Virus record (IMG/VR): IMGVR_UViG_3300009347_000008
Source: a virus
Length of the DNA stretch: 64,000 bases
Direction: 5' to 3' (one strand)
Position numbers and translations under genes: made by a program. Under the pieces are notes generated by a model, which was not told the origin of the DNA, did not search any database, and saw nothing but the letters and a program-made list of their open reading frames with translations. Position 1 is the first letter of the stretch. The number at the start of each line of letters is the position of its first letter. Shown here one piece after another: positions 12,503 to 62,858 of this stretch.

Positions 12503-12526
12503 CAGAGAGTACCCGAAGGTACTCTC
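12503..12526. terminator. Terminator hairpin AGAGAGTACC-CGAA-GGTACTCTCT (identical copy at 59429-59452)
   Basis: Perfect palindrome with a CGAA loop, flanked by TAAAG/CTTTA. It sits between the convergent genes 9528..12479(+) and 12538..12771(-). Confidence 0.7.
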
Positions 12527-12537
12527 TTTATGCCGTC

Positions 12538-12771
12538 TTACAGGTCAAGAATGATTTCCATTTGATCAATGATATCATCGACCTTATCATGATTTGGAAG
12601 CCCCTTTTGCAGTTCTTCGTGTAGCTTATTGTACAGATTCAATTCATTCTTGTTGAGAGAGCCAGCTTTCACCAGGATGGCGACATAACGATTGATCTTG
12701 ATAACACGCAAAGAACGGATCTTAGCATTGATAGCCATACGTTCCTTGAGAAGTTCTTGCATACTGGTCAT
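12538..12771 (-). CDS. Small hypothetical protein (77 aa)
   Basis: ORF downstream of the promoter-like box at 12829-12856 (minus orientation). Confidence 0.45.
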   Translation of the reverse strand: MTSMQELLKERMAINAKIRSLRVIKINRYVAILVKAGSLNKNELNLYNKLHEELQKGLPNHDKVDDIIDQMEIILDL

Positions 12772-12828
12772 AACAGTTTTCCTTAAAAGTAGGATGATTA
12801 ATGAAACTATGATTATAGCTCAAAACTG

Positions 12829-12856
12829 TTATATATCGCTGAAATGTTTTTATTTG
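12829..12856 (-). promoter_or_regulatory. Conserved promoter-like box (plus-strand TTATATATCGCTGAAATGTTTTTATTTG; minus-orientation CAAATAAAAACATTTCAGCGATATATAA), copy 1
   Basis: The same motif recurs at 39158, 44298, 51985 and 59396, with a weaker copy at 63950. It always lies just downstream (in the minus direction) of a terminator hairpin and 30-110 nt upstream of the next minus-strand start codon. Confidence 0.5.
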
Positions 12857-12860
12857 CGTC

Positions 12861-12890
12861 ATAAAGGGAGACCCGAAGGTCTCCCAGTAT
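12861..12890. terminator. Terminator hairpin GGGAGACC-CGAA-GGTCTCCC
   Basis: Palindrome with a CGAA loop immediately after the stop of 12893..13558. Confidence 0.65.
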
Positions 12891-12892
12891 CT

Positions 12893-13558
12893 TTATCGTG
12901 GAATGAGGAATTCAGAACTATAGAGTTCAGTGATGAGTGCTCTTTTGTCTGGATCTTCATCCGTACCATCTTCAATAACCACATTGTTAGGTGAGAAGGG
13001 TAATTGACCAATACGTGCGATCAGTTTAATCTGTTCGACAGTAAGGTCATTGGCATCAAGGATATCTTTGAGTTTGTCAACTTCCAAATCAATCTTACAC
13101 CATTCGGAAACCTTACCTTTCGGATTCCTAAAGACATCAACTTCGAAGTTCATATCCTTAGCTTTAATCTCGAATTCAAGATCCCCCTTCTTGCCACGGA
13201 TAGTCTCCGCTTTGAACACATAACGAGTCTTGCTCATGAAAGTATCACAAACAGCCATAAAGAGGTTATAAACCTTTTCACTGATACGTTCTGTGGTTTC
13301 AATACTAGCTTGAACACCCTGAGTTTTCTGTTTTTCTTTGCTAGTCATCTCATAGACAGGTTCTTTACCTTCTACTGTGATTTTGCGAATTCGGACAGAA
13401 CCTTTGGCAGACTTAATCTGCGCTTGCTCATGTTGTTCAATATGGACTGCTTGCGCTAATCCATCAGGATTAGTAATCTTGGCATAGATCACTACTTCGG
13501 TTTCTTGGCTTGTATTTTTGTTATCGCCATCTTCCATGGCAATCTTAATAATACCCAT
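12893..13558 (-). CDS. Hypothetical protein (~221 aa). Start moved to the internal Met (MGIIKIAMEDG...), which is preceded by AAGGAG.
   Basis: Strong Shine-Dalgarno sequence 7 nt upstream of ATG 13558. Confidence 0.55.
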   Translation of the reverse strand: MGIIKIAMEDGDNKNTSQETEVVIYAKITNPDGLAQAVHIEQHEQAQIKSAKGSVRIRKITVEGKEPVYEMTSKEKQKTQGVQASIETTERISEKVYNLFMAVCDTFMSKTRYVFKAETIRGKKGDLEFEIKAKDMNFEVDVFRNPKGKVSEWCKIDLEVDKLKDILDANDLTVEQIKLIARIGQLPFSPNNVVIEDGTDEDPDKRALITELYSSEFLIPR

Positions 13559-13568
13559 AATTGACTCC

Positions 13569-14099
13569 TTAACTTGATAGAAGCATTCTGACAATCTCAG
13601 AGAAGAAAGTCACAATGGCAGACAGGATACCTGACTCTGACATAGTGCCGCTAGTCAAGCTAGTGTAGATGATAGTTACAACAATTGCAATCAAGCTAAT
13701 TAAGAGAAGTGAAGAAACAAAGATGAGTAAATATTTTACCCATTCATGCATTCTAGCTCTGTTAATCATTCTTGTCTTGCGTTCATTGAGCTTTTGTTCA
13801 ACAGACTCAGATCTTAACTGTTGTCTGTAGTAAGCTCGCAGAGCTTTCGTTTTATCTTCCTCAGATAGATTAGCGATTGTTGCTGTAATTACATTTTCAA
13901 GAGCTTCATCATCTGCTACGAAAACATCGTTACCACCATCCAGATCATTGAAATCAGTAGGGAAAGGAAATCCACCAGGATCTCTTCCACCCATACCTCC
14001 ACCAGGACCCGGAAACCTACCCATGTTAGGCATTCTCCTAGTAGGTGTGCTCAGGTTATGAACTGAGTCTTTGTCGAAGTCGCCTAAACCTATTCCCAT
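13569..14099 (-). CDS. Membrane protein (176 aa): Gly/Pro-rich N-terminal region and a C-terminal transmembrane segment; possible lysis-associated (holin-like) protein
   Basis: Hydrophobic stretch YLLIFVSSLLLISLIAIVVTIIY; immediately downstream of the spanin pair. Confidence 0.4.
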   Translation of the reverse strand: MGIGLGDFDKDSVHNLSTPTRRMPNMGRFPGPGGGMGGRDPGGFPFPTDFNDLDGGNDVFVADDEALENVITATIANLSEEDKTKALRAYYRQQLRSESVEQKLNERKTRMINRARMHEWVKYLLIFVSSLLLISLIAIVVTIIYTSLTSGTMSESGILSAIVTFFSEIVRMLLSS

Positions 14100-14446
14100 T
14101 ATTTAGACTCCTTCTTCGCTTTATCTCTTTCCTCACCAGCCTTCACTTTTTCATTCATGATGTTTGTGATAGCTTTTTTATCGGCAACACACATTCTCAA
14201 TTCCGAAATCAATGATTGACTATATCGAATCATGAGATCTTCTTTCACTTCGTGAGAAGCGTTTATGTATACACTCTTCTTAGGAGGGCTAGGAATTGTA
14301 TTTAACTTCAATAAGTGAGTAGGGACGGTCACGTAAACAGTTTCTATTTTGTAAACAGGAACTTCCTTGATCTCAGTCTTAACAATCGTACCACAACCTG
14401 TAATGAAGAGTGCGACCAATAGAACGATAAACTTCTTTAGCATCAC
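14099..14446 (-). CDS. o-spanin-like outer-membrane lipoprotein (115 aa)
   Basis: Signal peptide with a lipobox (LFITGC), a Pro-rich segment (IPSPPKK), and a 4-nt overlap with the upstream i-spanin-like gene. Confidence 0.55.
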   Translation of the reverse strand: MMLKKFIVLLVALFITGCGTIVKTEIKEVPVYKIETVYVTVPTHLLKLNTIPSPPKKSVYINASHEVKEDLMIRYSQSLISELRMCVADKKAITNIMNEKVKAGEERDKAKKESK

Positions 14447-14943
14447 TTAGCTCCTTTGCACTCTGGGTCATCATTCGCACCAGCACAGTATGTGTCCCAT
14501 AAAGAGTTAATCCGTGCTGTAGCAATCTCCTTGGCTTTTTGCTTAGTTAAAGTATCCTTCATTTTTTCATCAGACATCGTTGGAACATCTTTATAATGAT
14601 CATTGATTTTATTGATTTTTTCTGAAAGATTTTCCCTAGCTTTATCGGTATCTTTTCTGATACCTTCTTTCTCATCTATATTGACTACAATTTCTTTATC
14701 ATCAATACGTGAGTTATCAACAATGGTATCGTTCTTATCTTTTAAACTCTTGTTCTCATCTTTAAGAACACTGATGACAACAGACTTGCCATCTTCAACT
14801 TTCTTCTCGGCATTCAGATAATGATCACGAATGAGTTTGTTACCACCAACGATGACGAATAAAATAGCTAGGGCAATAAGGATATACTTAAAGTTATCCT
14901 TTAATAGACCTAGTATTAGTTTTATAAACGCTCTAAAAACCAT
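14443..14943 (-). CDS. i-spanin-like protein (166 aa): N-terminal TM segment plus a charged coiled-coil periplasmic domain
   Basis: TM segment YILIALAILFVIVGG followed by a K/E/D-rich helix; adjacent to the lipoprotein gene. Confidence 0.5.
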   Translation of the reverse strand: MVFRAFIKLILGLLKDNFKYILIALAILFVIVGGNKLIRDHYLNAEKKVEDGKSVVISVLKDENKSLKDKNDTIVDNSRIDDKEIVVNIDEKEGIRKDTDKARENLSEKINKINDHYKDVPTMSDEKMKDTLTKQKAKEIATARINSLWDTYCAGANDDPECKGAK

Positions 14944-14944
14944 A

Positions 14945-15517
14945 TTAACCTCTCAATCTTAGTAACTCGCAATAACCTACGGCAGTTGCATCAATAGAGT
15001 GTTCATCAAGGTTATTGAAGTTGACCATCTCTAATTCCTTGATTAGTTTAATGGCTTTCTTGACAGCATCCTTATCTCCTCGTGCCTGTGCTCCTACAGC
15101 TTTCTTCACAGAAGGCGGATCGATCATGTAAAGAGGTTTGTAGTCATCCCAAAGATGTAAAGTTCTTTGCAATGTAAATACCGTCTCTACTAAAGGAGCA
15201 TAAGCATTAGGTCTAAACCTATTGAAGAAAGGGGCTTCTGATGCAACTACTGTGGGGTTATATACGGTCAGTACTTGTGAAAACTTTTCGCTAATTAATC
15301 TAAGTCTACTATATTTAGCTGAATGCATTTGTACTTCAAAGGAATCTTCATCTAAGAATCTCGATACCTTTTCTGTCCACGGAGTAACTGATACTATTTT
15401 GAGATCGTCTATATTAACTGTGATGATAGAAAATCCGATAGTATCAGTACCGGGATCAATACCTAGTATATTGAAAGTTTGTTTTTCGAATATACTACTA
15501 TCGGACACTATCTGCAT
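14945..15517 (-). CDS. ruvC: RuvC-like Holliday junction resolvase (190 aa)
   Basis: N-terminal ILGIDPGTDTIGFSI motif (the RuvC catalytic Asp region) and a C-terminal DEHSIDATAVGYC motif. Confidence 0.75.
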   Translation of the reverse strand: MQIVSDSSIFEKQTFNILGIDPGTDTIGFSIITVNIDDLKIVSVTPWTEKVSRFLDEDSFEVQMHSAKYSRLRLISEKFSQVLTVYNPTVVASEAPFFNRFRPNAYAPLVETVFTLQRTLHLWDDYKPLYMIDPPSVKKAVGAQARGDKDAVKKAIKLIKELEMVNFNNLDEHSIDATAVGYCELLRLRG

Positions 15518-16362
15518 TATTGAGTGAGTTTGAACAGGGGCTCGATAGCACCGACTTCTAAGTCGATATCGAAACCACCACGTTGACTCTTAACAGGTTG
15601 CAGTGCACTGATATGGTGAGTGGTCTGGGCAGCAATAACTTCATTGAAGCTAAAAGAATTACCAGAACCATTAGGTACTGTCACTGAACGATTCACACCA
15701 GAGACCAAACCGATTTCAGAGATGAAAGCATAATCTTCACTGTTGTGGAGAATCATAGCTGCATTCAAAATCTCTTCTGCATCGAAGGCATCTAGAGTAA
15801 TCTTCAGTTTAACGCTAGCGGCAAGATACTCGCCTTTAACAGTATTTACTGCTGTAGGACTCAAGTCTTGCGGAACAGGGTTAAGGTTATCACTGGTAGG
15901 TTCGAACAAAGTAATGGTGGTGTTACCATTTTCCACATGTCGTCTCTCAGGAACCACCGTCAGGGACTGTTTACTAAAACGACGTGCATAGTAAGCAAAA
16001 TATTGCTCACCACCAACCGTTACAGTTGTACGAAGGGCAAAGCGTGCCTGTTGTGCTGTGGTAATATCGTTATTGATAGGGCGCAGGACAAAAGGGAATA
16101 GCTTGAAAGGGGCAGCATCGTCTGATTTATGAATCTTGTTCGAAATCAGAGGAATGTCATCCTGACCAGGTACACTCATGTGACCACCGATACCGATAGT
16201 CATATACCCCACTGATGGCATCTCATTAGCACCAAGTGCAGCAGTAGGCTGAATATTCAATTTCTCATTTAGTGTAGAGAATTTCTGAATCAATGCGGGG
16301 ATACCAAAAAACTGTGCAGCTTGTAAGGTGGCCCCGTAGATAGTTCTGCGGTAAACTTCCAT
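15517..16362 (-). CDS. Hypothetical protein (281 aa)
   Basis: ORF with translational coupling. Confidence 0.6.
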   Translation of the reverse strand: MEVYRRTIYGATLQAAQFFGIPALIQKFSTLNEKLNIQPTAALGANEMPSVGYMTIGIGGHMSVPGQDDIPLISNKIHKSDDAAPFKLFPFVLRPINNDITTAQQARFALRTTVTVGGEQYFAYYARRFSKQSLTVVPERRHVENGNTTITLFEPTSDNLNPVPQDLSPTAVNTVKGEYLAASVKLKITLDAFDAEEILNAAMILHNSEDYAFISEIGLVSGVNRSVTVPNGSGNSFSFNEVIAAQTTHHISALQPVKSQRGGFDIDLEVGAIEPLFKLTQ

Positions 16363-16385
16363 TTTTTAAATCCGTATTGAGAGTT

Positions 16386-16416
16386 TCAAATTAGCTAGGG
16401 GAACTAACCCCTAGCT
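16386..16416. terminator. Hairpin TAGCTAGGGG-aactaa-CCCCTAGCT
   Basis: Perfect 10-bp stem just downstream of the stop of 16435..19599 (minus strand). Confidence 0.55.
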
Positions 16417-16434
16417 CACAAAAGATTTCCTTAT

Positions 16435-19400
16435 TTATAGTCGCCAGTTAGTTATATCTAGGTCAGAGTTGATGTATCTAAAGATCATCTTAGGTATTGT
16501 TCTATGAGAGATGCCATTTTTGTTAGCAAGAGTCTTCTCTAAGAATTGAGTACCGAATGTCTGAGAAACATTATATTCGAATCTAGTTAATCTAACGTTC
16601 GCTAATTCCACATGCCCGATACCAAGCTTAGTTGCAAAGGTTCCATTACCATATCTAAACACCATTGGGTTCATGGTAAATGTACCAGAGTTCATCGTGG
16701 TGGTCTGAGATACTTCATAATCCATCACGAGATAAGTGTAACCACCTAATGGATTATAAGGTGATGGGATTCTAGGCACTGTGAATTGAATGTAAGTAGA
16801 CTTAATATCAAGTTCACGATCACCACCAGGCGACACCAGCGTTCCGGCATCCAAATCATGGGCGACCATCTTCATAGCCTTTAAGGAACCTTCTAAGGAT
16901 CTGTACTGAATGCTAAACTCTGCGTGAGCATAGTTATACCAGTGCATTGCAACATCGAAGTTTAAATATTGAGGTTCGAACACAATACTTCCATCTTCAT
17001 AGACAGTTGTGATTGGTTTCAGTTCAACATCGATATCGCCAGTCTTCTTGATACTGTACAGAGGACCTAACAGAATACCGCCTGTGTATTCTTCGCCCTT
17101 CCAGTTGGTCTCTTCTGGAATCTGTGACATATACTTAAATGACTCTGCTTTATAGTAGCCTTTAAACACCTGATGATTGATAACGAATGTATCTTCGATG
17201 TTATTGTAGAAACCATCCAAGATAACCTTGATATCATCATTATAGAAAGCTTCGTAAGTCTTACTAACATAGAAGTTAACATACGAGTCCATAATGTTCA
17301 GTCTAGGTTTAACGTTGTCGACACCAATCTTCAGAGACTTAGCAATAGTTTCAACGTCCACATTCGGAATGTAATCGTCTGGAGTAGGATAATTTGTATA
17401 GATATCCTTAACCTTCTTCTTCTCCTCTGGTGACAAGTCGTAATAGGGCTTGAACAGAGGTATCTCAAAGAGATTAGATCCGGCACAATAAGGTCCAATG
17501 TGTTGATTGAGTTTAAACATTCCCAGATCAACAATCTTCTTATTACTGATCTTAACATCACCCATGATGTTTACTGGAATGTCAATGAATTCTACTTCTA
17601 AATCTGATCTGAGTGTGAAGTTCTGTAGAATATCTGGTAACTCAATCTCGAACTTAGGATAGTTCTTGATAACGAGTTTAAAAACACGCATTAGAGCTAG
17701 TTGTACTTCGTACATAGCTCTACCAGTATATTTAACATCCCCCAACCTAATGGCAGCCCAGTTAAGAACTTTAATACTAGATTTATTGATGCTCTGGACA
17801 AACTGAATAGAATAACTAGATAGCTGTCTGAGCAACGACACCATTGCCTTTTGTAGATCACTAGTTACACTGGTAGCATTCATATCTAAACCAGTAGCTT
17901 CTTTATAAATCTCAGTATAGAGTCTAATCCAATCATTGGTTCCTAAACCTTCGATGTCGATATTGTTAAACCTTAATATGGAATCGAAATCTTTACCAGT
18001 GAACTCATTCTCAATTACTGCTACCTGATACAAACGACTTACAGCATTGTGCACTAGACCTCTAGTGTACATGTGTTCATGATTCGAGGTGAAATACGTT
18101 TGTTTGATAGCTGCTTCATGGTGGGCTAAAACCCAATCAGTGAAAGCAGGAGTCGAGATAATTGTTTCGTGAGGCTTATGTAAGTCTAAGATAAAATCAA
18201 TGTACTCAATTGGTACATAGTTCTTGTCAACAATAGAATAGATCTCATCTCGTGTTGGGACAGGATCTATAGGTACTCTAGTTGCAACAAGAGGCGGTAT
18301 GGTTTTTACATTAAGACCGTGCGCTTTACAATAAGCATAAAGAAACAGAATCAATCCTACTTTAACATCGACCGTCGTGGTGGCACCGGAGACAGGATTA
18401 GTTACAGGAATGTAGGACGTATATTTATTCTTCTGTGATAAATAGATCCAATTATTCAAGGCAATATCTGCCTGAGTAATAGCCATAGAATCGCTGTAAT
18501 CAAACATAGCCGACTCTAGGACTTTGGTCTTGTATCTATTAATGATACTTCTCTGAAACTTATTCTCTATATCTTTTTCATGTATGGCTCTATACTCGCT
18601 ATTTCCAACAGCTTCGGGTTCTTCCTTAGAGAGAATGTAAGCTAGGTTGTAAATACCAGCATCATGTTCAAAGATACGCGCTTCTTCATTGAGTAAGCGT
18701 TTCCTGAACATTGCCTTAGGAGTATTAGCTTCTGGCATCGAAGCGATATCATGATGCATATTGAATTCGGATATCGGGAGATTTCTATCCGTCATCACCT
18801 TTTCAATCAACCACTCGAATGTCTCACGTTTACCAGAATTACGTTCAATATAGTTAATGTTTCTATAGAAGAACAAAGCCTGCTTACGAGTCATATTGGA
18901 TAGATAGACATCCAACATACCGTGAGATTCTAAATACTCTCTTACATGAAAGCTGTGTGCTTCTGGTGTCTTACAGGACCTCAATCTCAAAGAGATGATA
19001 AGGGGTGGTAATTGTAAGAACATAACAGCTAAGAATGCTGAGATGTAATTAGTATCTGTCAAGTTAAATTGACGATTATACCAACGTTCCTTAAAGCCAT
19101 AAAGCCACTTATTGATATTATCTACTAAAGATACTTCGTTATCTTCTATTAGATTAGTAGGATAACCAATAACGGTGAAATCCTCAGCGTTAATGGCCTG
19201 CTCAATATTGACAGGATAAAGGGCACCTAGGATGAATTGTTCGTATTCTGGATACTGGCTCAGTAATTCTCTATAGTATCGAGTACCATATTCGTAAGCT
19301 TTAGCTGTTGCTCTATGTATAGCTAGACTATCTCTACTAAACTCAATAGTCTGTAGAGTATCCAATGATGTGACATAGATTTTTTTGTCAGTGCTATGGT

Positions 19401-19599
19401 ACTGGCCAGATAAGTTAAGATAGTATTTCCATGTACGTTTATCATCGATATCAAATACGTTGCCGTAGGTAGCCTTTAATCTCTCATTAATTGAGTCTGC
19501 TACTGCTTCTACTTTGATAACCATAGTTTTGGATAGATCCAGAACTTGATTAACGTAGAGTTTGTAATAATTGAGACTCATCAAAAATCTCCATTTCAA
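16435..19599 (-). CDS. Very large hypothetical protein (1054 aa), likely a virion component
   Basis: Uninterrupted 3.1-kb ORF with no polymerase or ATPase motifs detected. Confidence 0.7.
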   Translation of the reverse strand: MKWRFLMSLNYYKLYVNQVLDLSKTMVIKVEAVADSINERLKATYGNVFDIDDKRTWKYYLNLSGQYHSTDKKIYVTSLDTLQTIEFSRDSLAIHRATAKAYEYGTRYYRELLSQYPEYEQFILGALYPVNIEQAINAEDFTVIGYPTNLIEDNEVSLVDNINKWLYGFKERWYNRQFNLTDTNYISAFLAVMFLQLPPLIISLRLRSCKTPEAHSFHVREYLESHGMLDVYLSNMTRKQALFFYRNINYIERNSGKRETFEWLIEKVMTDRNLPISEFNMHHDIASMPEANTPKAMFRKRLLNEEARIFEHDAGIYNLAYILSKEEPEAVGNSEYRAIHEKDIENKFQRSIINRYKTKVLESAMFDYSDSMAITQADIALNNWIYLSQKNKYTSYIPVTNPVSGATTTVDVKVGLILFLYAYCKAHGLNVKTIPPLVATRVPIDPVPTRDEIYSIVDKNYVPIEYIDFILDLHKPHETIISTPAFTDWVLAHHEAAIKQTYFTSNHEHMYTRGLVHNAVSRLYQVAVIENEFTGKDFDSILRFNNIDIEGLGTNDWIRLYTEIYKEATGLDMNATSVTSDLQKAMVSLLRQLSSYSIQFVQSINKSSIKVLNWAAIRLGDVKYTGRAMYEVQLALMRVFKLVIKNYPKFEIELPDILQNFTLRSDLEVEFIDIPVNIMGDVKISNKKIVDLGMFKLNQHIGPYCAGSNLFEIPLFKPYYDLSPEEKKKVKDIYTNYPTPDDYIPNVDVETIAKSLKIGVDNVKPRLNIMDSYVNFYVSKTYEAFYNDDIKVILDGFYNNIEDTFVINHQVFKGYYKAESFKYMSQIPEETNWKGEEYTGGILLGPLYSIKKTGDIDVELKPITTVYEDGSIVFEPQYLNFDVAMHWYNYAHAEFSIQYRSLEGSLKAMKMVAHDLDAGTLVSPGGDRELDIKSTYIQFTVPRIPSPYNPLGGYTYLVMDYEVSQTTTMNSGTFTMNPMVFRYGNGTFATKLGIGHVELANVRLTRFEYNVSQTFGTQFLEKTLANKNGISHRTIPKMIFRYINSDLDITNWRL

Positions 19600-19623
19600 A
19601 AACGTTTACGAAAAAGGTCTGCA

Positions 19624-22308
19624 ATGAGTAAAGATAATTTCAGGGCACTTGTTTCTGCGAATAACAGCGGCAAACAAATCCCAGCAGTTAATTTAGTGCG
19701 AGATACTCCGATTATTGCTGCCACCCTGAGTAAGTTAGTTCAACCAACTGACAGAAAAGAATTCGATCAGAGTGGCAACAGAAAAGTAACTGCACCGAAT
19801 CATTCTAACATCATAGGGATTTCCAAAGATATTGCACAAAAGAAAAAAGACAACACTAATGTCATGGATTTATTTCCAGAATTAGGGTTGGCTGGCGATA
19901 TCTTAATTAGTCTCATTAATTCACCTAAGGACATGTATAGCTCAGAATTGAGTGTTACTGTTCCTAGTGATCTTCTGGTATCTCCTATCACTAATCTGAT
20001 TCTTCCGATTATCGAAGAATACCTGAAAGATGAATACGGCATCAATGAAGAAATTCCAATAATGCTTGAAAAGGTGTTACTGAAAGATGGTGCTTATCCT
20101 GTTGTAGTTATTCCAGAAAACTCTGTGGATGACTTGATCAACGGTAAAGTAGATATCTCTTTAGAGAGTCTGAAAACATACATGGATGACAAGGGTATCT
20201 TTAAGTCAGCGGGATGGTTGGGTGCCAGTACTATTGCACAAACTAATCCAACGATTAGGAATTTTGGTTTAGAAAGTTTCCTTGGAGATGCTGGACCACA
20301 GTCTGGAACGATTGACCCTGTTATCAAGTTCATGGATAAAGATAAGAAAGCTGTAGCTCTAGAAGATATTATCGTGATTGATAATTTCTCTGCTCTTAAG
20401 TTACCAAAGATCATTGAGACCAGGAGAAAGAACAGTTCTAGAAGAATATTAGACGGTAATCTTATCACCAATAAAGTATTCTCAATCGGGACTGAAAGTA
20501 ATAGTAAACTTACTGACAAACAACTGACTAGTTTACTCTATAAGAACAAGCCACACACCACAGTTAGCTTACGTAGAGTTAAAACGAGTAATCAACTCGA
20601 CCGTGAAACAGTTGGAGCACCTCTGATTATCAAATTGCCTACTGAGTCCGTTATTCCGATTTACCAACCAGGCAATCATAGTGAACACGTTGGTTATTTC
20701 GTAGTTCTTGATAGTGAAGGTAATCCTGTTAGTATTGATAGTGACTTCTCTGCTTATGACGATATGCGTTTTAAGCATTCGATGTCCACTAACATGAATT
20801 CAAGCATCGTTCAAAGAGCTGCTGATCAATTCGAAGTGAATTGTGATGCTGTCACGTTCGATAACGTGAGCCGTGTTTATTCGGATATCATTGAAGCTGA
20901 TCTCTTATCACGTTTGAAGAATGGCATCATTGGTGAGAACGTCTCTATTGCTAAACCAGAAGAGATCTTCCGCATTATGACAGCCAGAATGTTGAGTAAA
21001 CAAAGAACTCAAATTCTCTTCGTTCCCAAAGAACTGTTGACCTACTTTGCTATTGACTTCAGAGAAAATGGTACTGGTAAGAGTTTGATTGAAGGAATGA
21101 TGGTTCTCAATGCGTTACGTGCAGCAACAATGTTTGCTAACGTCAATCGTGGTATTGTTAACTCTATCGGTAGAACAGAAGTCGAAATCAACGTTGACGA
21201 AAATGATCCTCAACCGAGAAAAACTCTTGAAATTGCAATGCATGAAGTCCTGAAGACTAAACAGTCTCAGACCCTTCCCGCTACGATTTCACCTGTTGAC
21301 ATTATGACGTACATTAATACGTCAGGTATTCAATTTAAGTTCGGTCAAATTCCTGGTCTACCTTCGACTAATCTGAATTTCAGTGAAGTGTCAACTAGTT
21401 ATGAGAAACCAGATTCCGATTTGGAAGACTCTTTGAGAGAGCGCCAGATCATGGGTATCGGTATTCCTGTAGAAATGGTTGACAATGCTAAGGGTGTTGA
21501 TTTTGCTACTACTGCCACGAACAACAATATCTTACTGAATAAACGTATTATTCAGTATCAAATCAAGTTCGAGCCATTGATTACGAATAATGCTAGGACT
21601 ATTATTCTTAACCATGGTGGTCTGATGGGTAAAATCAAGAACACTATTAAGGAAAATATCTCAAAACTTACAGAGGTTCAAAAGACTAATGAGGTTTTCG
21701 AAGAATATAAAAACAATGAAGATCTTCTCGTTCATCTTCTCTCGTTAGAGATCGTCTCTAACTTTGAGATTAATCTACCTAGACCAGATGTCATTGCTGT
21801 TGATACCATTACCGAAGCTTATACCAAGCACGAGGAGATGGTTGAAAAGGGTATCGATGCATGGTTCAGTTCTGATATTCTGGCTGCTGCCTATATCGGT
21901 GAAGCTAGCAGTGAACGTGTGGATGAAGTCAGAGCCATGATTAAAGCTCAGATGATGAGAAGCTGGATGACTTCTAATAACATGTTGCCTGAGATGGCTG
22001 ATATGTTAACTGTAGATGACGAAGGTAAATACGTATATAACAATGTGGAAACACAGCGTCAACACGTATTTGCTGCTACCAAGTTTATTAGAGATCTCTT
22101 AGAGAAGACTGTGCCTACTGCACAGGCAGCAGATAGAGATATTAATAAGATTACTGGTGGTGAAGATTTGGGTGAAGGATCAGTATCTGGTGGATCTGAT
22201 TATACATCAGACGATACTACAAGTGAGGATTCCCCCACGGATGACACCGGAGGAGGAGATGATGATCTGGATGCAGGTTTAGATATGCCTGACTTCGGTG
22301 ATATCTGA
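19624..22308 (+). CDS. Large hypothetical protein (~894 aa) with an acidic Asp/Gly-rich C-terminus. Start moved to ATG 19624 (MSKDNFRAL...).
   Basis: The track start 19546 overlaps the divergent 1054-aa gene; ATG 19624 follows an AAAAGG RBS-like sequence. Confidence 0.6.
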   Translation: MSKDNFRALVSANNSGKQIPAVNLVRDTPIIAATLSKLVQPTDRKEFDQSGNRKVTAPNHSNIIGISKDIAQKKKDNTNVMDLFPELGLAGDILISLINSPKDMYSSELSVTVPSDLLVSPITNLILPIIEEYLKDEYGINEEIPIMLEKVLLKDGAYPVVVIPENSVDDLINGKVDISLESLKTYMDDKGIFKSAGWLGASTIAQTNPTIRNFGLESFLGDAGPQSGTIDPVIKFMDKDKKAVALEDIIVIDNFSALKLPKIIETRRKNSSRRILDGNLITNKVFSIGTESNSKLTDKQLTSLLYKNKPHTTVSLRRVKTSNQLDRETVGAPLIIKLPTESVIPIYQPGNHSEHVGYFVVLDSEGNPVSIDSDFSAYDDMRFKHSMSTNMNSSIVQRAADQFEVNCDAVTFDNVSRVYSDIIEADLLSRLKNGIIGENVSIAKPEEIFRIMTARMLSKQRTQILFVPKELLTYFAIDFRENGTGKSLIEGMMVLNALRAATMFANVNRGIVNSIGRTEVEINVDENDPQPRKTLEIAMHEVLKTKQSQTLPATISPVDIMTYINTSGIQFKFGQIPGLPSTNLNFSEVSTSYEKPDSDLEDSLRERQIMGIGIPVEMVDNAKGVDFATTATNNNILLNKRIIQYQIKFEPLITNNARTIILNHGGLMGKIKNTIKENISKLTEVQKTNEVFEEYKNNEDLLVHLLSLEIVSNFEINLPRPDVIAVDTITEAYTKHEEMVEKGIDAWFSSDILAAAYIGEASSERVDEVRAMIKAQMMRSWMTSNNMLPEMADMLTVDDEGKYVYNNVETQRQHVFAATKFIRDLLEKTVPTAQAADRDINKITGGEDLGEGSVSGGSDYTSDDTTSEDSPTDDTGGGDDDLDAGLDMPDFGDI

Positions 22309-22320: not shown

Positions 22321-22346
22321 AGGAGTGGCCTAGGCCACTCCTTTTA
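22321..22346. terminator. Terminator hairpin GGAGTGGCC-TA-GGCCACTCC followed by a T-run
   Basis: Perfect palindrome between convergent genes. Confidence 0.65.
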
Positions 22347-22353: not shown

Positions 22354-23634
22354 TTATTCACACATGTCAAGCATGTACTTATTAATCACTTCATAGACAG
22401 CGAAGATCGCACCAATGTCAGCCAGTAGAGCAGACATGAGGAATTTAGCTTCATTGATCTTACCGGAATACTCTAAGAGAGCATCCAGACTATCCTTCAA
22501 TGTACTATTGTCCTTTTGCGTTTCAAGTTCACTAGTCTTTTCAAGGGTATCACGAATAACTTGTCTACAATAATCGTAAGCTGCAATACGGCTTTGAATA
22601 ACTGTACTCAGTTTACCTGTACCAATGAAACCGAAGATACCACCGATGGTGCAGCTATTACTAAAGGAGCTTTCGCTACCAATACAAGTACTGTTATCGT
22701 ACTTCCAAGGTTTGTATTCACCGGTGGCTGGGTCAATTACGTAAGTCTTGGGACCATTAGTAACTTTATAGAAGTCACCAAACACTACTGTCCGAATAGT
22801 GCCATCGACTGAGTCGCTACGGAAGACCTTGGATAGATTTTCAATAAACTCACCAGTCTTAGTACCTTCGAAATCAGATCTCATGACTTCTGCACGTCTA
22901 CGACCTTCTTCGTATTCGATCAGATGCGGCCTCAAGAGATATAAACCCACACCCATCAAATCAGCCCACTTCAGATGTTTACTGAAGGAACACTTCACAG
23001 TTTCGAGATCATCAGATTCGTATTCGTTCAGGAATCGGATAATGTTCTTATTAAACTGTACACTGATATCAGTGTAAGCCAAACGCTTCTCTTGAAGTTC
23101 TTGTTCCGACACATCCAGAAGTTTCTTGCCTAAGTCAATGACAGTAGCTTTAAGATCAGTGTATGCCTTCTCGTAATTAGATCGCATCAATGACAAAGCA
23201 GGCTTGTATTCTGTCTTTGACTTCTCTTCTGTATAGAGATTAGGATTACCCATTGGTTGTTTACGAACAGGTGGGGTTTCCTCTTCATCAGATTGTTCTG
23301 GAGGTTTTTGCTGCTCAGGAGGAGCTTCTGTGTCATTACCTTCCAAATCTTCAATAATAGATTCGACAGCAATCACATCTGCTCTACTGATACCGCCGGA
23401 TTCTTCAATCTCAGCGGATTTATCTGCCAGCTCAACCAAACGATCTTCTCTGGATTTTTGGATAACAAACTCAGCATCCAATTCTGGAAGACGGCGTACC
23501 TGAATACCTTGAGTGAAAATAGTTTCATCAGATACATCATTAGATGCTTCTCTACCACGGGCAGGAGTATCTAGTACAGCGGTTCTTCCTTCAGGATTAC
23601 CGAACTCGTTATCGACTTCGTCATTCAGTCCCAT
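22354..23634 (-). CDS. Hypothetical protein (426 aa)
   Basis: ORF. Confidence 0.6.
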   Translation of the reverse strand: MGLNDEVDNEFGNPEGRTAVLDTPARGREASNDVSDETIFTQGIQVRRLPELDAEFVIQKSREDRLVELADKSAEIEESGGISRADVIAVESIIEDLEGNDTEAPPEQQKPPEQSDEEETPPVRKQPMGNPNLYTEEKSKTEYKPALSLMRSNYEKAYTDLKATVIDLGKKLLDVSEQELQEKRLAYTDISVQFNKNIIRFLNEYESDDLETVKCSFSKHLKWADLMGVGLYLLRPHLIEYEEGRRRAEVMRSDFEGTKTGEFIENLSKVFRSDSVDGTIRTVVFGDFYKVTNGPKTYVIDPATGEYKPWKYDNSTCIGSESSFSNSCTIGGIFGFIGTGKLSTVIQSRIAAYDYCRQVIRDTLEKTSELETQKDNSTLKDSLDALLEYSGKINEAKFLMSALLADIGAIFAVYEVINKYMLDMCE

Positions 23635-48474: not shown

Positions 48475-48493
48475 TAATCTTTCCTACATCTTA

Positions 48494-50920: not shown

Positions 50921-50926
50921 ATGTAT

Positions 50927-51956: not shown

Positions 51957-51984
51957 AGCAACTCCATTAATTGTTCAGATTAAT

Positions 51985-52006: not shown

Positions 52007-52015
52007 AGAAATAAA

Positions 52016-52090
52016 TGGTGGGCGATCCAAGAATCGAACTTGGAACTAAAACTTAGAAGGTTCTTGTTATTTCCATTTAACTAATCGCCC
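52016..52090 (-). tRNA. tRNA-Arg(UCU): tRNA-Arg(UCU), CCA encoded
   Basis: Acceptor GGGCGAT/ATCGCCC; D stem GTTA/TAAC; anticodon arm AGAAC-CTTCTAA-GTTTT; T arm CCAAG-TTCGATT-CTTGG. Confidence 0.8.
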
Positions 52091-52176
52091 TTGTCCTTTA
52101 CTCTAATCCAACTGAGTTACAGACGCTTTATCTTTAAGCTGTTGCTACTATTCGCTGAGCTATGGGCAGTTATGTT

Positions 52177-52478: not shown

Positions 52479-52566
52479 TGGCGGAAGAAGTGAGATTCGA
52501 ACTCACGGATAGTCACCCATCGCCGGTTTTCAAGACCGGTCCATTAAACCACTCTGGCACTCTTCC
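52479..52566 (-). tRNA. tRNA-Ser(UGA): tRNA-Ser(UGA) with a long variable arm, CCA encoded
   Basis: Acceptor GGAAGAG/TTCTTCC; anticodon arm CCGGT-CTTGAAA-ACCGG; long variable arm; T arm GTGAG-TTCGAAT-CTCAC; 88 nt. Confidence 0.8.
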
Positions 52567-52819
52567 TATTTGATTAGACGGTTTATTCCAGTACATCACC
52601 GAAAGTTTCTTAACTATCTGGAACTTAGGCAGGTCAATATTAATTACAATCGTCAGACCTTTATGGCGTTCTACCAAGATAGAATTATTTTGCTGCTTTG
52701 TACCCAACATCGCAACAAACCCGCCTGCAATTGAGATTGTAATGTACAGCCGATCGTGTCAACTTTTGTACATAATAATAATTCTAACAATAAAAAATAC
52801 ATATTAAAGAAAAAAGAAA

Positions 52820-52835
52820 AGCACCCGAAGGTGCT
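52820..52835. terminator. Short hairpin AGCACC-CGAA-GGTGCT in an A-rich/T-rich context
   Basis: Member of the CCCGAAGG hairpin family downstream of 52957..53529. Confidence 0.45.
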
Positions 52836-52956
52836 CATCTTTATCGGAAGAAGTATCGTTTGATCTTTTCCCAGAATTTCAGCGATGAGACGAGCTAGAT
52901 GTCTTTACCCAAAATCAAACCATTTAATTTAGAAAACGGCTCTGGATTTGTGGTAA

Positions 52957-54084: not shown

Positions 54085-54126
54085 TCTTCTATCCTTTCAA
54101 AAAATGGAACGTCATAAAAAGAAAGA

Positions 54127-54152
54127 GCACCCGAAGGCACTCTTTCTTTGGA
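54127..54152. terminator. Imperfect hairpin of the CCCGAAGG family (AAGAGCACC-CGAA-GGCACTCTT)
   Basis: Palindrome with two internal mismatches, flanked by CATAAAAAG/CTTTGG. Confidence 0.45.
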
Positions 54153-54536: not shown

Positions 54537-54567
54537 TAAGAAGGAGTACCCGAAGGTACTCCCTTTA
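54537..54567. terminator. Hairpin GGAGTACC-CGAA-GGTACTCC within CATAAG...CTTTATG
   Basis: Perfect palindrome with a CGAA loop. Confidence 0.65.
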
Positions 54568-58129: not shown

Positions 58130-58605
58130 TTCATTATCCTTTCATAAAGTCATAGATACTGACTCTTTATGTACTATTAAAAAAATACTGTTACTATTGA
58201 TACTGTGGGTACGTACATACATACATAATGGGGGGCTACGCCCCCCTAGTATATATTATTAAGTTAGTATGTCTACTGCGTAGAAGACTCCGTAGGATGG
58301 TCTTCGCTCGCTGGTATAGTCTCATCCTTCGTCTACCTTCGGTATCCTCAGTCCTCGTCTATCCTCTAGCTCGCTCAGACTGAAAAAATCAATCTGAGCA
58401 TACTATTGAAGTATCAATAAAATTTAGATAAAAACAAATAGATTAATAAAGTAAAGCTTCTAGCTTTACAATGAAATCATTTAATTTAATAGAGTATATA
58501 CGAGTAGTAAACTACTCGATTAAGAGAATGATAAAGACATGTATATATAGGGCGCAAAAATTGTGATTTGGATTTTTTAAGTTATCTAGAAAAAAAAACA
58601 AAAAA

Positions 58606-58630
58606 AAAGACTCTCCATATGGAGAGTCTT
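58606..58630. terminator. Hairpin GACTCTCCATATGGAGAGTC between an A-run and a T-run
   Basis: Perfect palindrome at the right edge of the 520-nt non-coding region. Confidence 0.6.
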
Positions 58631-58649
58631 TTATGACGCTTACTATGGC

Positions 58650-59330
58650 TTAACTACAGTGCGCTTTGACGATGCGTTCCATGAGAACTTTTCCATCTAG
58701 TCCAAACTCACTGAACTTCATCTCGGCCATTTTGCGTGCATCGTTGCCACGGCGCCATACTCTGATGCCGTCACTGTAGTCATAGCTATGATCAAGGGAG
58801 AAGGCAAGGTCAACCAGATCTTTAAAGCCGTCATCCTTAGACATAGTCAGGATTTCAGCCTTGAGGTCAGCAATTTTCTTTAAGTATGCTTGACTCCTAG
58901 CTTCTTCTTCATTGCGACGCTTGACTCTCTCGGCATGTGCAGCCATGAGCTTCTCAGTAGTCTGATCATTCATGTTGTTCATGAAGTTACCACTGAAATA
59001 ACCAAGCGACTTACTCAATTCTACCTTCAAGACAGTGTAATCATCGTAGGTGAAAGTATCTGTTTTGTTATCGACTTCACCAACCAGGATCAGACCATAG
59101 ATTGAGGTAATGTAATCCCGTCCCCCCTTAGTAGTGCCAAGATTATATCTTTCGTTGGCCGCTTCGGTTTGCTTCTTAAACTCTTCAATGACTTCTGGAT
59201 CGATGATCCAGAGGGTCTGATTACTGTAGAAGGCGTTGAATGCTCCAAAGGAGTAGTGGCTGCTTACCAATGTCAGATTATTGGCGTACCATTGTTGCAG
59301 ATTTGTCAGCATGATGTTTTTTCCTTTCAA
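58650..59330 (-). CDS. Hypothetical protein (226 aa)
   Basis: ORF downstream of promoter-like box copy 5. Confidence 0.55.
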   Translation of the reverse strand: MKGKNIMLTNLQQWYANNLTLVSSHYSFGAFNAFYSNQTLWIIDPEVIEEFKKQTEAANERYNLGTTKGGRDYITSIYGLILVGEVDNKTDTFTYDDYTVLKVELSKSLGYFSGNFMNNMNDQTTEKLMAAHAERVKRRNEEEARSQAYLKKIADLKAEILTMSKDDGFKDLVDLAFSLDHSYDYSDGIRVWRRGNDARKMAEMKFSEFGLDGKVLMERIVKAHCS

Positions 59331-59395: not shown

Positions 59396-59420
59396 TATAT
59401 ATTGCTGAAAATTTTTTATT
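59396..59420 (-). promoter_or_regulatory. Promoter-like box copy 5 (TATATATTGCTGAAAATTTTTTATT)
   Basis: Same hairpin-then-box arrangement; ~60-90 nt upstream of start codon 59330. Confidence 0.5.
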
Positions 59421-59428
59421 ACTGCATA

Positions 59429-59452
59429 AGAGAGTACCCGAAGGTACTCTCT
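59429..59452. terminator. Hairpin AGAGAGTACC-CGAA-GGTACTCTCT (an exact copy of 12503-12526)
   Basis: Identical 24-mer at the two loci. Confidence 0.7.
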
Positions 59453-59455
59453 TAA

Positions 59456-60415: not shown

Positions 60416-60782
60416 TCAGTACAGTTTCAGACACAATGTCGCCGTCGCTGTCATAGACAACCCTGTATCTGGCCTCTTGAAGAATGGTAATACCATCTTT
60501 AGCAAAGACAGTCACTACCTTAAGATTCAACTTAGGTGGTACTTCTGCTGGTTCATCAGGGTCAATCTCATAAGTAGTCCTCCTGATTACTGTGCCATCT
60601 ACTCGTTTATGAGTAATGGTTTTAAACTTACCTGTAATAGGATCTTTATTCTCGTAATCAGTGTTGACATCCAAGGCGCTATGAATGGTGATATTCTCTA
60701 AGAATAAAATACGATTCACGACTGCCGTTACATCAGCAGCAGTACGTTTAGCCAACGCTGTAGCTTCAGACCAAACACTCAT
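60408..60782 (-). CDS. Hypothetical protein (124 aa)
   Basis: ORF with overlapping stop/start on both sides. Confidence 0.5.
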   Translation of the reverse strand: MSVWSEATALAKRTAADVTAVVNRILFLENITIHSALDVNTDYENKDPITGKFKTITHKRVDGTVIRRTTYEIDPDEPAEVPPKLNLKVVTVFAKDGITILQEARYRVVYDSDGDIVSETVLSE

Positions 60783-61594
60783 TATACATTCCTTTCAATA
60801 AATGTACTACCAGTGGCAGTACCAAGAGCTGCCGTATACTCCGCAACTAAATCTACGGGATCACCAAGATCTTCTTTACTAGCGGCACCAATGTTATTTC
60901 TAGCTTGGCCCTTTTGCGCAACAGTTAAACTCTGACCTGTATTGTATCTAACCATGTTTCCTAATTCAGTAGCTAAACTAGTGGCCAGATTAGGATCAGT
61001 TGCCAGATATGCAGCTAAGGAACTGAGCGCATCATAAGCTGCGGCATGGTTATCAAGTAGATCATTCTTAACTGCTATTTGTGATTGCAGAAGTTGGTCG
61101 ACAATCTTAGCCACAGACCAAGTAGCGTCTGTAGCAGTGGTAGAATCATCCTTGATTGTTACAGCGCTGGTGATTAAGTCCAGCTTGTGTTTCATGTTAG
61201 AGATATCAAGGAGAATGTCTTTGATGTCTCTACCAATTGTGAAGATAGTCTGATTGTACGGTTTAGTTGGTACAGGCGTATTACTAGCACCTGTTTTACC
61301 ATTCGTATAATCAGCTATAGCGTTGAAGTATTCACCAGCTAACTTGAAACCACCATCTTGTCCGTAGGCAATAATGTTATCAGGATCTTCACTCACGAAG
61401 ACAATCAAACCTCTAGCACCTGCCGAGATAGCGTAGGGTAAGGCATTCCATGCATGGATACCGTTACCAATTTTAAAGAAATTTGAATCTCTTTCTACAC
61501 CGATTTCAAGATTGGCTAATACTGGATTGCTGGTAGTCCATTGTGCACTACTATTCTTAGTAATGACATATGTTCTATTCGGAGCAGTTGCCAT
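60782..61594 (-). CDS. Tail-fibre-like protein (270 aa)
   Basis: AQKGQARNNIGAASKEDLG resembles the ARxNLG/IGA repeat seen in phage tail-fibre proteins; GC is moderately elevated. Confidence 0.4.
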   Translation of the reverse strand: MATAPNRTYVITKNSSAQWTTSNPVLANLEIGVERDSNFFKIGNGIHAWNALPYAISAGARGLIVFVSEDPDNIIAYGQDGGFKLAGEYFNAIADYTNGKTGASNTPVPTKPYNQTIFTIGRDIKDILLDISNMKHKLDLITSAVTIKDDSTTATDATWSVAKIVDQLLQSQIAVKNDLLDNHAAAYDALSSLAAYLATDPNLATSLATELGNMVRYNTGQSLTVAQKGQARNNIGAASKEDLGDPVDLVAEYTAALGTATGSTFIERNV

Positions 61595-61602
61595 ATAAAA
61601 CC

Positions 61603-62121
61603 TTAATTACAGTAAAACAAATTGAGGTCAATGACCTCATAAGACAACTGTTGAGCTTCATTAAAGACATTGACCAGATTTTTAGGACAAAGCATCAGAT
61701 CGAGTTTGCCAGAAAAACGTTTATGTATGTCTGCACGATCACCTGGCTCTGTCTTGGAAGAATTCACATAAGTCAATAAATCAATAACAACTTCATCATC
61801 AGTTAGAGAAGTGTAGAAACGAATACCAACATCCTTTTGTTTGTATTCAGTTACTACCAGAACTTTCGAGAAATCCAAGAGAATAACTTGTTGACTTGCA
61901 GAGAAAGCATTTCTGTATTCAGCCAACAAACCACCATCATAAAATTTAACTTCCCAGATGTCCTTGAGTTTCTGAACTCCTCCGTTTTCTATCCCTACAG
62001 TCATCTCACCAATATGGTGGAGAGATTTACATAGATAGACTTCAGCAATACTTGGTATAGCTCTACCATCGTGAGAGTCTCGGTAGGTATCGTTATAATA
62101 AGTGTGGATTTGTGATTTCAT
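61603..62121 (-). CDS. Hypothetical protein (172 aa)
   Basis: ORF. Confidence 0.5.
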   Translation of the reverse strand: MKSQIHTYYNDTYRDSHDGRAIPSIAEVYLCKSLHHIGEMTVGIENGGVQKLKDIWEVKFYDGGLLAEYRNAFSASQQVILLDFSKVLVVTEYKQKDVGIRFYTSLTDDEVVIDLLTYVNSSKTEPGDRADIHKRFSGKLDLMLCPKNLVNVFNEAQQLSYEVIDLNLFYCN

Positions 62122-62190
62122 ACAAAGAAAAAATAAAAGACAACCACTGAAGACGCATATGCGTCATAATCAGATAATTGCCTCTTACTT

Positions 62191-62691
62191 TTATAATTTC
62201 AGTTTAAGCTGTTCATAGAGATAAACGTTTACATTTTTACAATTGCCAACGTTCTTAAAACCCATCTCTACACCAAAGAGTGCAATAGCACCAGATCGAC
62301 TAACACCCATATCACATTGAACGATAACATTCAAATTCTCAGCCAGAGCTTTGGCTAATATGGAATGAATCTTATCAATGTCTTGTTGACTAGGTTTAGT
62401 TTGATCGAAGCCATGATCAGTTTTCTTGACATCATGAAAAAAGAACCTATGACGGTTCTTTTCTCTTACCCAATCAGATAAACCTTTTGGGTAAGTATTA
62501 ATGTCGAAAGCACTGATCTGTATCAGAACACAGTCTGATTTATACTTGAATAATTTATCCTTTTTAAAGGAATACCCAGAGTACAAATCAAATCTAGAAA
62601 AGTTACAGATCCAAGGCATGTTACCTCTTGATAACAGTGGCAGGCGCACAGCGGTAATTAGTCCGGGTACTACGATCACTGAGTGCTTCAT
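62191..62691 (-). CDS. Dual-specificity/protein-tyrosine phosphatase (166 aa)
   Basis: CX5R P-loop: VQCDMGVSRSGAIALF (HCxxGxxRSG signature), with an upstream Asp-containing general-acid region. Confidence 0.65.
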   Translation of the reverse strand: MKHSVIVVPGLITAVRLPLLSRGNMPWICNFSRFDLYSGYSFKKDKLFKYKSDCVLIQISAFDINTYPKGLSDWVREKNRHRFFFHDVKKTDHGFDQTKPSQQDIDKIHSILAKALAENLNVIVQCDMGVSRSGAIALFGVEMGFKNVGNCKNVNVYLYEQLKLKL

Positions 62692-62839
62692 AATGGCGCT
62701 GCAATGATTCGCAGCTATTTCGATCTTTGAACTCTTCCAGCTTGGTAGGGGCGAAGCTACCGTTAGAACTTACAGCGATCAATACCCAGATTGCAAATTC
62801 GGTCATCATGATTTTCCTTAAAAGTACGGATACATAAAA

Positions 62840-62858
62840 AGGAGAGCCGAAGCTCTCC
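62840..62858. terminator. Hairpin GGAGAGC-CGAA-GCTCTCC
   Basis: CCCGAAGG-family hairpin flanked by CATAAAAA. Confidence 0.55.

Follow-up and report, generated by a model that had tools for sequence, protein, structure and literature searches.

The 64,000-nt stretch of viral DNA analysed here (IMG/VR record IMGVR_UViG_3300009347_000008; hereafter, the window) carries a family of hairpins in its intergenic regions. The hairpins are very probably transcription terminators and mRNA 3′-end hairpins of an undescribed phiKZ-like jumbo phage, acting as RNA on the transcribed strand (mostly the − strand) and following the same design as the intrinsic terminators of phiKZ and 201phi2-1. The family is real but largely ordinary for the phiKZ group, a known kind of element in a new phage. 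An earlier description made from the letters alone (the sequence-only reading) had taken the hairpins as a distinctive family of their own, the published phiKZ terminator motif having gone unrecognised (PMC10914365).

The hairpin family is genuine and strongly non-random, because its counts exceed those expected by chance. The octamer CCCGAAGG occurs in 8 copies against 0.55 expected in the window, and no shuffle reaches 8. Perfect tetraloop hairpins with a stem of at least 7 bp number 23, compared with 2.2 ± 1.4 in 100 dinucleotide-preserving shuffles of the window; among them, CGAA loops number 9, compared with 0.00. When the stem threshold is lowered to 6 bp, CGAA accounts for 10/16 of the perfect tetraloops in intergenic regions and 0/19 of those within genes. 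The CGAA loop is thus enriched both against shuffles and in intergenic relative to genic DNA. All family members are intergenic, and in 14/20 copies the first base lies 1-28 nt past a − strand stop codon. A stem-loop is present at each of the 15 positions that had been listed previously, but that list overlooked five members (2508-2535, 32268-32294, 45993-46012, 58230-58246, and 58605-58632). Moreover, the 24-mers reported as identical at 12503-12526 and 59429-59452 are off by one and not identical; the true match is 25 nt long, 12504-12528 being equal to 59429-59453.

The loops have a defined orientation. CGAA loops are found exclusively on the + strand (the eight CCCGAAGG copies plus those at 34153, 46001, and 62848), as is the single CGTA loop; on the − strand the loops therefore read 11 UUCG and 1 UACG, and no TTCG loop occurs on the + strand of the window. 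Since most genes (68 of the 81 predicted) lie on the − strand, the loop in RNA is UUCG, and the apparent CGTA exception is UACG. The loop is of the U-N-C-G form with a closing C-G pair on the RNA strand. A GNRA-like loop had been proposed on the basis of the other strand. The two loop types resemble each other in being four-base loops closed by C-G, but CGAA does not fit G-N-R-A and lies on the non-transcribed strand for most copies, whose loops read C(UUCG)G or C(UACG)G once transcribed. Correcting the strand also changes what loop conservation means. It had been taken as a sign of a specific factor; however, the UNCG loop is thermodynamically special, and relatives also use CUAG, UUUC, and GCAA, indicating that the loop needs no specific reader.

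In the − strand RNA the recurrent order is a stop codon, 1-28 nt, AAAGRGAG..CC-UUCG-GG..CUCYC, and then (U)UUAUG-NN-GU. When both strands are folded as RNA, the − strand has the lower energy in 17/21 copies, by up to 7.7 kcal/mol. In particular, complete pairing of the hairpins at 1245, 2508, 52812, and 54120 requires G·U pairs that form in the − strand RNA alone and correspond to A·C mismatches on the + strand; the gap for these four hairpins is 2.4-7.7 kcal/mol. Together with the asymmetric loops, they show that the hairpins are not fully palindromic, as had been supposed. The folding advantage of the − strand and the dependence on G·U pairs indicate that the elements function as RNA, on the gene-sense strand. 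Both the orientation of the loop and the G·U pairs track the gene strand. When loops from all sources are oriented by the TATG tail alone (see below), they are mixed (5 TTCG versus 3 CGAA); unlike the loop, the tail does not always agree with the gene strand.

C(UUCG)G hairpins have precedents. Extra-stable hairpins of this type were reportedly first noticed in T4 intergenic regions (as CUUCGG) by Tuerk et al. in PNAS in 1988, and they are said to be common in Escherichia coli terminators, as described by d'Aubenton-Carafa et al. in JMB in 1990. The hairpins of the window resemble those of T4 and E. coli in lying at mRNA 3′ ends and in having a UUCG or UACG loop with a C-G closing pair (14/14 aligned tetraloop copies). 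They differ in that the hairpin is coupled to a TATG-YY-GT tail rather than to a U tract alone, and in that the polymerase is presumably a multisubunit phage enzyme.

Pairing is maintained by selection at the RNA level. In an alignment of 14 tetraloop copies anchored at the loop, 93.6% of the cells pair, 9/10 pairs vary on both sides, and the closing C-G is invariant; this alignment is descriptive only, as the copies were picked as hairpins. Independent information comes from three metagenome assemblies (L139, L140, and L141) that are ~90-95% identical in nucleotide sequence to the window over 30934-52706 (~22 kb). All eight family sites in this shared region keep the hairpin in the three assemblies. 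Compensatory changes are found at three of them: U-A to C-G at 44333 in L141; G-C to A-U at 45245 in L141, with G·U intermediates in L139; and U-A to C-G at 45993 in L139 and L141, together with one A·C mismatch. The TTTATG tails are unchanged. At 39193, the downstream (3′) U tract is kept in the relatives and the upstream (5′) A tract is not, as expected of a one-way element. At a larger distance, 12/16 relatives have a hairpin at the place equivalent to the 12504 site, past the homologue of the 983-aa virion gene; the stem sequences are unrelated, and 10 of those 12 hairpins carry the TATG tail on the gene strand.

The stem is followed by a conserved tail. The sequence-only reading had described a CATAAAG...CTTTATG frame around the hairpins. 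An exact search for the frame gives a single match, at 58143-58171, a site that had not been listed, and the frame is therefore loose; still, TATG stands on at least one side of 15/26 perfect intergenic hairpins and on both sides of 7/26. TATG occurs within ~9 nt of the stem on 22/52 sides of intergenic hairpins, compared with ~1.7 expected from its window frequency (0.0037 per position) and with 3/70 genic sides. The 'CTTTATG' flank corresponds to a tail, (T)TTATG-YY-GT, whose logo reads TATG followed by C/T/A, C/T, G, and T. Most copies have 2-5 U and then AUG; long U runs are found at 39193, 45993, 52812, 58605, and ~51330. Like canonical rho-independent terminators, the elements consist of a stable hairpin and a U-rich stretch, and some copies are two-way owing to an A tract upstream. 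Unlike in canonical terminators, in which some 7-9 nt of unbroken U-rich sequence come after the stem, the U run is in most copies short (2-5) and broken by a fixed AUG. A generic terminator scan of positions 1-20000 flagged only two copies.

The tail is shared across the phage group. We compared strong hairpins in 18 sources of 32-60% GC, phiKZ being represented by positions 100-150 kb (L017). TATG is present on 20/40 sides in the window (1.5 expected), on 19/38 sides in phiKZ (1.75 expected), and on 5/6 sides in the GC-rich locus L013 (0.07 expected). An excess of TATG after strong hairpins is found in 14/16 distant relatives, and no clear excess is found in L004 (0/6 sides) and L011 (1/32). 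The G of TATG lies at +5 or +6 from the stem in 47/87 cases. In GC-rich relatives the tail lacks the U run, e.g. GGGGAGCCCAG-cTATGCCGc; relatives of at least 50% GC have a mean of 3.3 T in the 8 nt past the stem, several of them within TATG-YY-GT, and retain the TATG tail. The presence of the same TATG-YY-GT tail in most of the phiKZ-like relatives sampled, over this range of GC content, points to the phage's own transcription machinery and suggests a polymerase signal. The reader of the tail is thus likely to be that machinery, and the tail is likely to be more than a generic U tract. Accordingly, the earlier suggestion that a specific factor recognises the hairpins is likely to hold for the flanks, which follow strong hairpins in phiKZ and in the other relatives, and not for the loop.

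Two observations concern TATG in the window as a whole. The pentamer TTATG is rarer than in shuffles (148 versus 175.6 ± 10.8) yet concentrated past hairpins, where 10/35 of the TATGNNGT sites are found. TATG itself occurs 303 times on the − strand and 168 times on the + strand.

The design of the hairpins is that of phiKZ terminators. Mapping of 3′ ends in phiKZ has revealed 61 predicted intrinsic terminators that share the motif 5′-BCCYCCCCHWWDGGGRRGGBYTTATKYYGT-3′, in which a TTAT region comes after a stem-loop (Putzeys et al. 2024, PMC10914365). A similar motif (motif A) is present in 59 terminators of 201phi2-1, and eight selected 201phi2-1 terminators stop read-through in vivo in a two-reporter assay (PMC11512511). 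As in these phages, the window has GC-rich intergenic stem-loops on the sense strand, with a purine/pyrimidine split between the arms and a YTTATKYYGT-type tail, placed past genes and taking two-way forms between convergent genes. In phiKZ, the hairpin past the major head gene reads GCCCTCCC-ttcg-GGGAGGGC-tttatgttgt and a second example reads GAGAGTCC-ttcg-GGACTCTC-ttatgttgt. The loops ttcg and tacg are thus used there also; they lie on the sense strand, with cgaa past a − strand gene. One position is shared directly: a phiKZ hairpin, CATAAT...TTATGACGT (L017 33073-33093), lies past gp129, at the same place as the hairpin at 22321 in the window. There are differences. In the phiKZ consensus the 5′ arm is C-rich and the loop is HWWD, whereas here the sense-strand 5′ arm is purine-rich and 12/20 loops are UNCG; and 3′ ends have been mapped in phiKZ and 201phi2-1, whereas the phage of the window is known here from sequence alone.

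The similarity extends to sequence and structure combined. A covariance model (R1) built from 14 window copies only recovers six members outside its training set, and all of its window hits at E ≤1 are intergenic. Its best hit in phiKZ is the terminator past the major head gene (32.6 bits, E 6e-5). Hits in L017 include 20587-20638, 10007-10054, 14200-14251, and 47140-47189, among others, and all have the orientation of the + strand genes that make up most of this segment.

Judged from its proteins, the window appears to represent a new, previously undescribed phiKZ-like jumbo phage lineage. Searching 8 kb against GenBank phages with megablast gives no nucleotide match, and protein searches were therefore needed for identification. 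For the 983-aa virion protein, tblastn gives 290 hits in phiKZ-like jumbo phages, with 35-42% identity among the matches listed. Virion proteins of the phiKZ group have homologues in the window; those of phiKZ gp128, gp129, and gp139 are encoded at 16435-19581, 19624-22308, and 15517-16362, respectively (27% identity, E 3e-86, for gp129). The best IMG/VR relative shows 47% identity, and protein identity to known relatives is only about 27-47%. The gene at 22354-23634 has no BLASTP similarity to phiKZ gp130, though it has the same length and position. A search of metagenome contigs gives a single match, a 5.4-kb contig lying within the window.

We infer that transcripts end at the hairpins in this phage and that its own RNA polymerases are involved. 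The nascent RNA would form a hairpin whose 5′ arm is rich in purines and whose 3′ arm is rich in pyrimidines (AAAGRGAG.../...CUCYCUUU), capped in most copies by the extra-stable C(UUCG)G and once by C(UACG)G. The (U)UUAUG-YY-GU tail would follow in most copies, and a plain long U run in a minority. At convergent gene pairs, tails on both strands would stop transcription from both sides. In many copies an early-promoter-like motif comes next, and such terminator-promoter cassettes may insulate adjacent transcription units. Termination in both directions, which had been assumed for the whole family, fits a subset: the three convergent sites (12504, 22321, and 30127) carry the tail on both strands (3/3), while among the 17 copies between co-directional genes the sense-side tail is present in 13 and the antisense tail additionally in 6.

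Several points weigh against assigning the hairpins to termination by a phage polymerase. Antisense tails such as those at the 6/17 co-directional sites are one; in addition, TATG is found on the antisense side only at 45993 and 58605 in the window and at L017 15947 in phiKZ, so the tail is not always on the gene-sense strand. Five copies lack a TATG tail and resemble plain U-tract terminators. No RNA polymerase subunit gene was found in the 64-kb window, where only gp123 was searched for, and the terminating enzyme is for this reason assigned from group membership, since phiKZ-like phages encode multisubunit RNA polymerases of their own. The gene map comes from our own codon-usage heuristic, a weakness of the gene calls. 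Finally, 3′ ends at such hairpins can come from exonuclease trimming rather than from termination.

This last point leads to another possible, though doubtful, reading, in which the hairpins serve chiefly to stabilise RNA or to direct its processing, blocking 3′ exonucleases or guiding an endoribonuclease, rather than as sites of polymerase release. UUCG-capped hairpins, such as the T4 CUUCGG hairpins of Tuerk et al. in 1988, are reportedly classic nuclease-resistant 3′ ends. The strand asymmetry and the G·U pairs fit any role at the RNA level, and 3′-end sequencing in phiKZ cannot tell termination from trimming. However, trimming would remove the conserved tail, which comes after the hairpin, and this makes a pure stabiliser hard to reconcile with the data; moreover, the eight 201phi2-1 terminators stopped read-through in the two-reporter assay (PMC11512511). 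Stabilisation and termination can coexist.

The tail is identical to the core of phiKZ late promoters, 5′-TATG-3′, in which G is +1 and which is essential (Yakunina et al. 2015, PMC4666361; a structure bearing on this core is available, PMC12809450). It is therefore conceivable, but unlikely, that the hairpin with its TATG is, or also is, a late promoter, at which the non-virion RNA polymerase starts at the G, so that it terminates and re-initiates or one unit ends where the next starts. The G of TATG stands at a fixed distance from the stem (+5/+6 in 47/87). The tails at 1245, 2508, 32268, 34142, and 62841 lie 14-43 nt upstream of the next start codon, so a dual role is possible at some sites, and two of the genes that follow (2-1201 and 1278-2477) are head-protein-like. 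As a general explanation of the tails, however, the late promoter is opposed by four observations. TATG is on both strands at 3/3 convergent sites, so that a promoter there would drive antisense transcription of the opposing gene. Four tails have an early-promoter-like motif within ~20 nt downstream. No hairpin lies upstream of P119L, a well-studied late promoter of phiKZ. YYGT is an extension seen in the terminator motif, and in phiKZ late promoters no conservation was detected downstream of TATG (PMC4666361, PMC10914365).

If the hairpins are terminators, the shared core offers a testable lead on how sigma-less phage polymerases stop. Speculatively, the TATG of the tail could be read during elongation by the non-template-strand pocket of the beta-like subunit that recognises the late-promoter core. 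The tail would then be more than a weak RNA-DNA hybrid: the polymerase would pause 5-6 nt past the stem, and the hairpin would release the transcript even in GC-rich relatives that have few U past the stem, perhaps with immediate re-initiation at the G. We consider this mechanism improbable as it stands; if it is true, starting and stopping would rely on a single four-base signal throughout the phiKZ-like group.

Spread of the hairpins through intergenic regions as a small mobile or copied repeat (REP- or MITE-like), raised in the sequence-only reading, is very unlikely. A 25-mer is common to two copies, and both the 18-mer GAGTACCCGAAGGTACTC and GCACCCGAAGG are common to three, suggesting occasional copying. 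But the identical copies have differing flanks. All eight sites shared with L139-L141 are present there and change by compensatory substitution; the site past the 983-aa gene has a hairpin with an unrelated stem in each of the 12 distant relatives; and the gp129-homologue site is common to the window phage and phiKZ. Placement is always at gene ends, with loop orientation tracking the gene strand. Entire terminator or gene cassettes may nevertheless have been copied now and then. A role of the palindromes as DNA, as sites for dimeric proteins or as cruciforms, finds some support in perfect inverted repeats with symmetric CATA...TATG flanks at 7 sites, but it is extremely improbable given the loop asymmetry of 12 to 0, the four copies that pair fully only with G·U in the RNA of one strand, the G·U intermediates in L139, and stem sequences that are not conserved between copies or phages, a point that speaks against a protein binding the stem DNA by its sequence.

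As terminators, the hairpins provide a reliable map of transcription-unit boundaries for an uncharacterised jumbo phage, and they may be of use in phage engineering as compact, possibly two-way, terminators. Three of them lie between convergent genes. The hairpin at 12504-12527, between 9528-12479 (+) and 12538-12771 (−), has UUCG on the − strand and tails TTTATGCCGT (+) and GATATGCTC (−), and scores 46.5 bits with R1 on the − strand. That at 22321-22342, between the gp129 homologue (+) and gene 22354-23634 (−), has the self-complementary loop CUAG and TTATG tails on both strands. The third, at 30127-30146, between 29633-30109 (+) and 30275-30700 (−), has UUCG on the − strand, tails GTTTATGCTGT (+) and TTTATGTCGT (−), and an R1 score of 46.7 bits.

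The remaining hairpins are assigned to the − strand, with one exception noted below. Four are among the six that R1 recovered from outside its training set. The terminator at 1245-1274, 3 nt past the stop of gene 1278-2477, has the tail UUUUUUAUGUUGU and folds at -15.1 kcal/mol on the − strand versus -7.4 on the + strand (R1 24.8 bits). The terminator at 2508-2535, GGAGGAGGGG-UAAC-CUUCCUCC with tail UUUUAUGAUG, lies past gene 2564-3838 and folds at -20.1 versus -14.5 kcal/mol (19.4 bits, E 0.05). A 12-bp hairpin with loop UUU and tail UUUUUAUGACCGU at 32268-32294 scores 30.8 bits (E 3.6e-5) and is the same, tail included, in L139 and L140. The hairpin at 44333-44357, AGAGAGUCCUA-UUA-UAGGACUCUCU with tail UUAUGUUGU, scores 23.3 bits and is followed by the early-promoter-like motif.

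Copies with the UUCG loop are found at nine further places. GGGAGACC-UUCG-GGUCUCCC with tail UUUAUGACG (12866-12885) lies 7 nt past the stop of gene 12893-13558, with the early-promoter-like motif next. AAAGGGAGGC-UUCG-GCCUCCCUUU with tail AUGUUUGG (34142-34167) is 1 nt past the stop of the ribonucleotide reductase small-subunit gene, with 15 nt left to the next start codon, and is identical in L139 and L140. AAGAAAAGCACC-UUCG-GGUGCUUUUCUU (39193-39220) has a long U run without TATG and is also followed by the early-promoter-like motif. CCAUCCAC-UUCG-GUGGAUGG (45993-46012) has a U-run tail, and GAGCACC-UUCG-GGUGCUU (52812-52843) has a long U run, folding energies of -15.4 (−) versus -13.0 kcal/mol (+), and an R1 score of 43.3 bits. 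AAAGAAAGAGUGCC-UUCG-GGUGCUCUUUCUUU with tail UUAUGACGU (54120-54147) has two G·U pairs in the − strand RNA only (-19.1 versus -13.0 kcal/mol). GGGAGUACC-UUCG-GGUACUCC (54543-54562; 47.6 bits) has tails on both strands and a weaker early-promoter-like motif next. UAAGAGAGUACC-UUCG-GGUACUCUCUUA with tail UGCAGU (59427-59454), the other bearer of the 25-mer at 12504-12528, is 1 nt past a stop codon and has the early-promoter-like motif next, and GGGGAGAGC-UUCG-GCUCUCC with tail UUUUUAUGUAUCC (62841-62858) is 4 nt past a stop codon.

The other copies have other loops. At 45245-45276, a 13-bp hairpin has the loop UUACAC and the tail AUGCCGU; at 58230-58246, GGGGGGC-GUA-GCCCCCC is followed by AUUAUGUAUG. 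The exception in strand is a 12-bp hairpin with loop AUAU at 58605-58632, 17 nt past gene 58650-59312, which is assigned to both strands (U-run tail on the − strand, TTTTATGACGC on the + strand). The UNCG-class loop UACG belongs to GGAGAGACC-UACG-GGUCUCUCC at 38514-38535, which has tails on both strands. Here the loop C-UACG-G of the window corresponds to U-CGUA-G in L139 (~11310-11335), L140, and L141 (~93% identity), a change that resembles a strand flip of the loop. A second, distinct hairpin, GAAGGGGAAAACCCAAAACCCCUUUUUUUC, is present at 38410-38458 (−), ~60 nt downstream in the same intergenic region, and the two may form a tandem terminator.

The early-promoter-like motif is an AT-rich sequence, not a hairpin. 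Its core, TTTCAGCRATATATA, is found on the − strand at 12830-12844, 39159-39173, 44298-44312, 51985-51999, and 59396-59410, with a weaker copy near 54494. The consensus, AAAAnnTTTCAGCrATATATa, lies 15-25 nt downstream of family hairpins, and AAAATGAGCT follows it in three copies. The general description of early promoters in jumbo phages fits this motif (PMC7598289), and the virion RNA polymerase probably uses it as an early promoter. When viral contigs were scanned for the 15-nt motif, only single chance hits were obtained. L139 (11236-11240), L140, and L141 lack the motif together with most of gene 38550-39074 (window 38609-39174), and the breakpoint is ~20 nt past the terminator at 39193. 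Between terminators, cassettes of a promoter plus a gene seem to come and go.

The window contains other structured RNAs. A twister-sister ribozyme hit (RF02681, 41.9 bits, gathering score 34) is located at 46289-46367 (−), in a 454-nt intergenic region, and the hairpin at 46308-46331 lies inside it. The hairpin at 16393-16416 (TAGGGG-aactaa-CCCCTA) has a look-alike form but gives no ribozyme hit, and was rejected as a twister-sister ribozyme. A group I intron (RF00028, 66.5 bits) is found at 27826-28120 (+), within the DNA polymerase region (25018-30109). Of the open reading frames by this intron (26703-27872 and 28233-28738), the first ends in the first bases of the intron and matches HNH endonuclease families. 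The polymerase gene thus appears to be split by intron and homing-endonuclease insertions.

On the − strand, a tRNA cluster comprises tRNA-Met (50300-50374), tRNA-Arg(TCT) (52016-52090), and tRNA-Ser(TGA) (52479-52566), with further tRNA-like fragments in 50801-50926 and 51957-52176. A tRNA-like sequence at 47740-48493 (−), GCCCCGATGGTGAAATTGGTAGACACCGGAGACTTTAAG ... GTGCCGGTTCGACTCCGGCTCGGGGCACCA, is broken by ~600 nt, and the insert (especially 48035-48341) gives a sub-threshold group I intron match (36.2 bits, gathering score 50, E 5.6e-7). It may be an intron-containing tRNA gene that is not called by ARAGORN.

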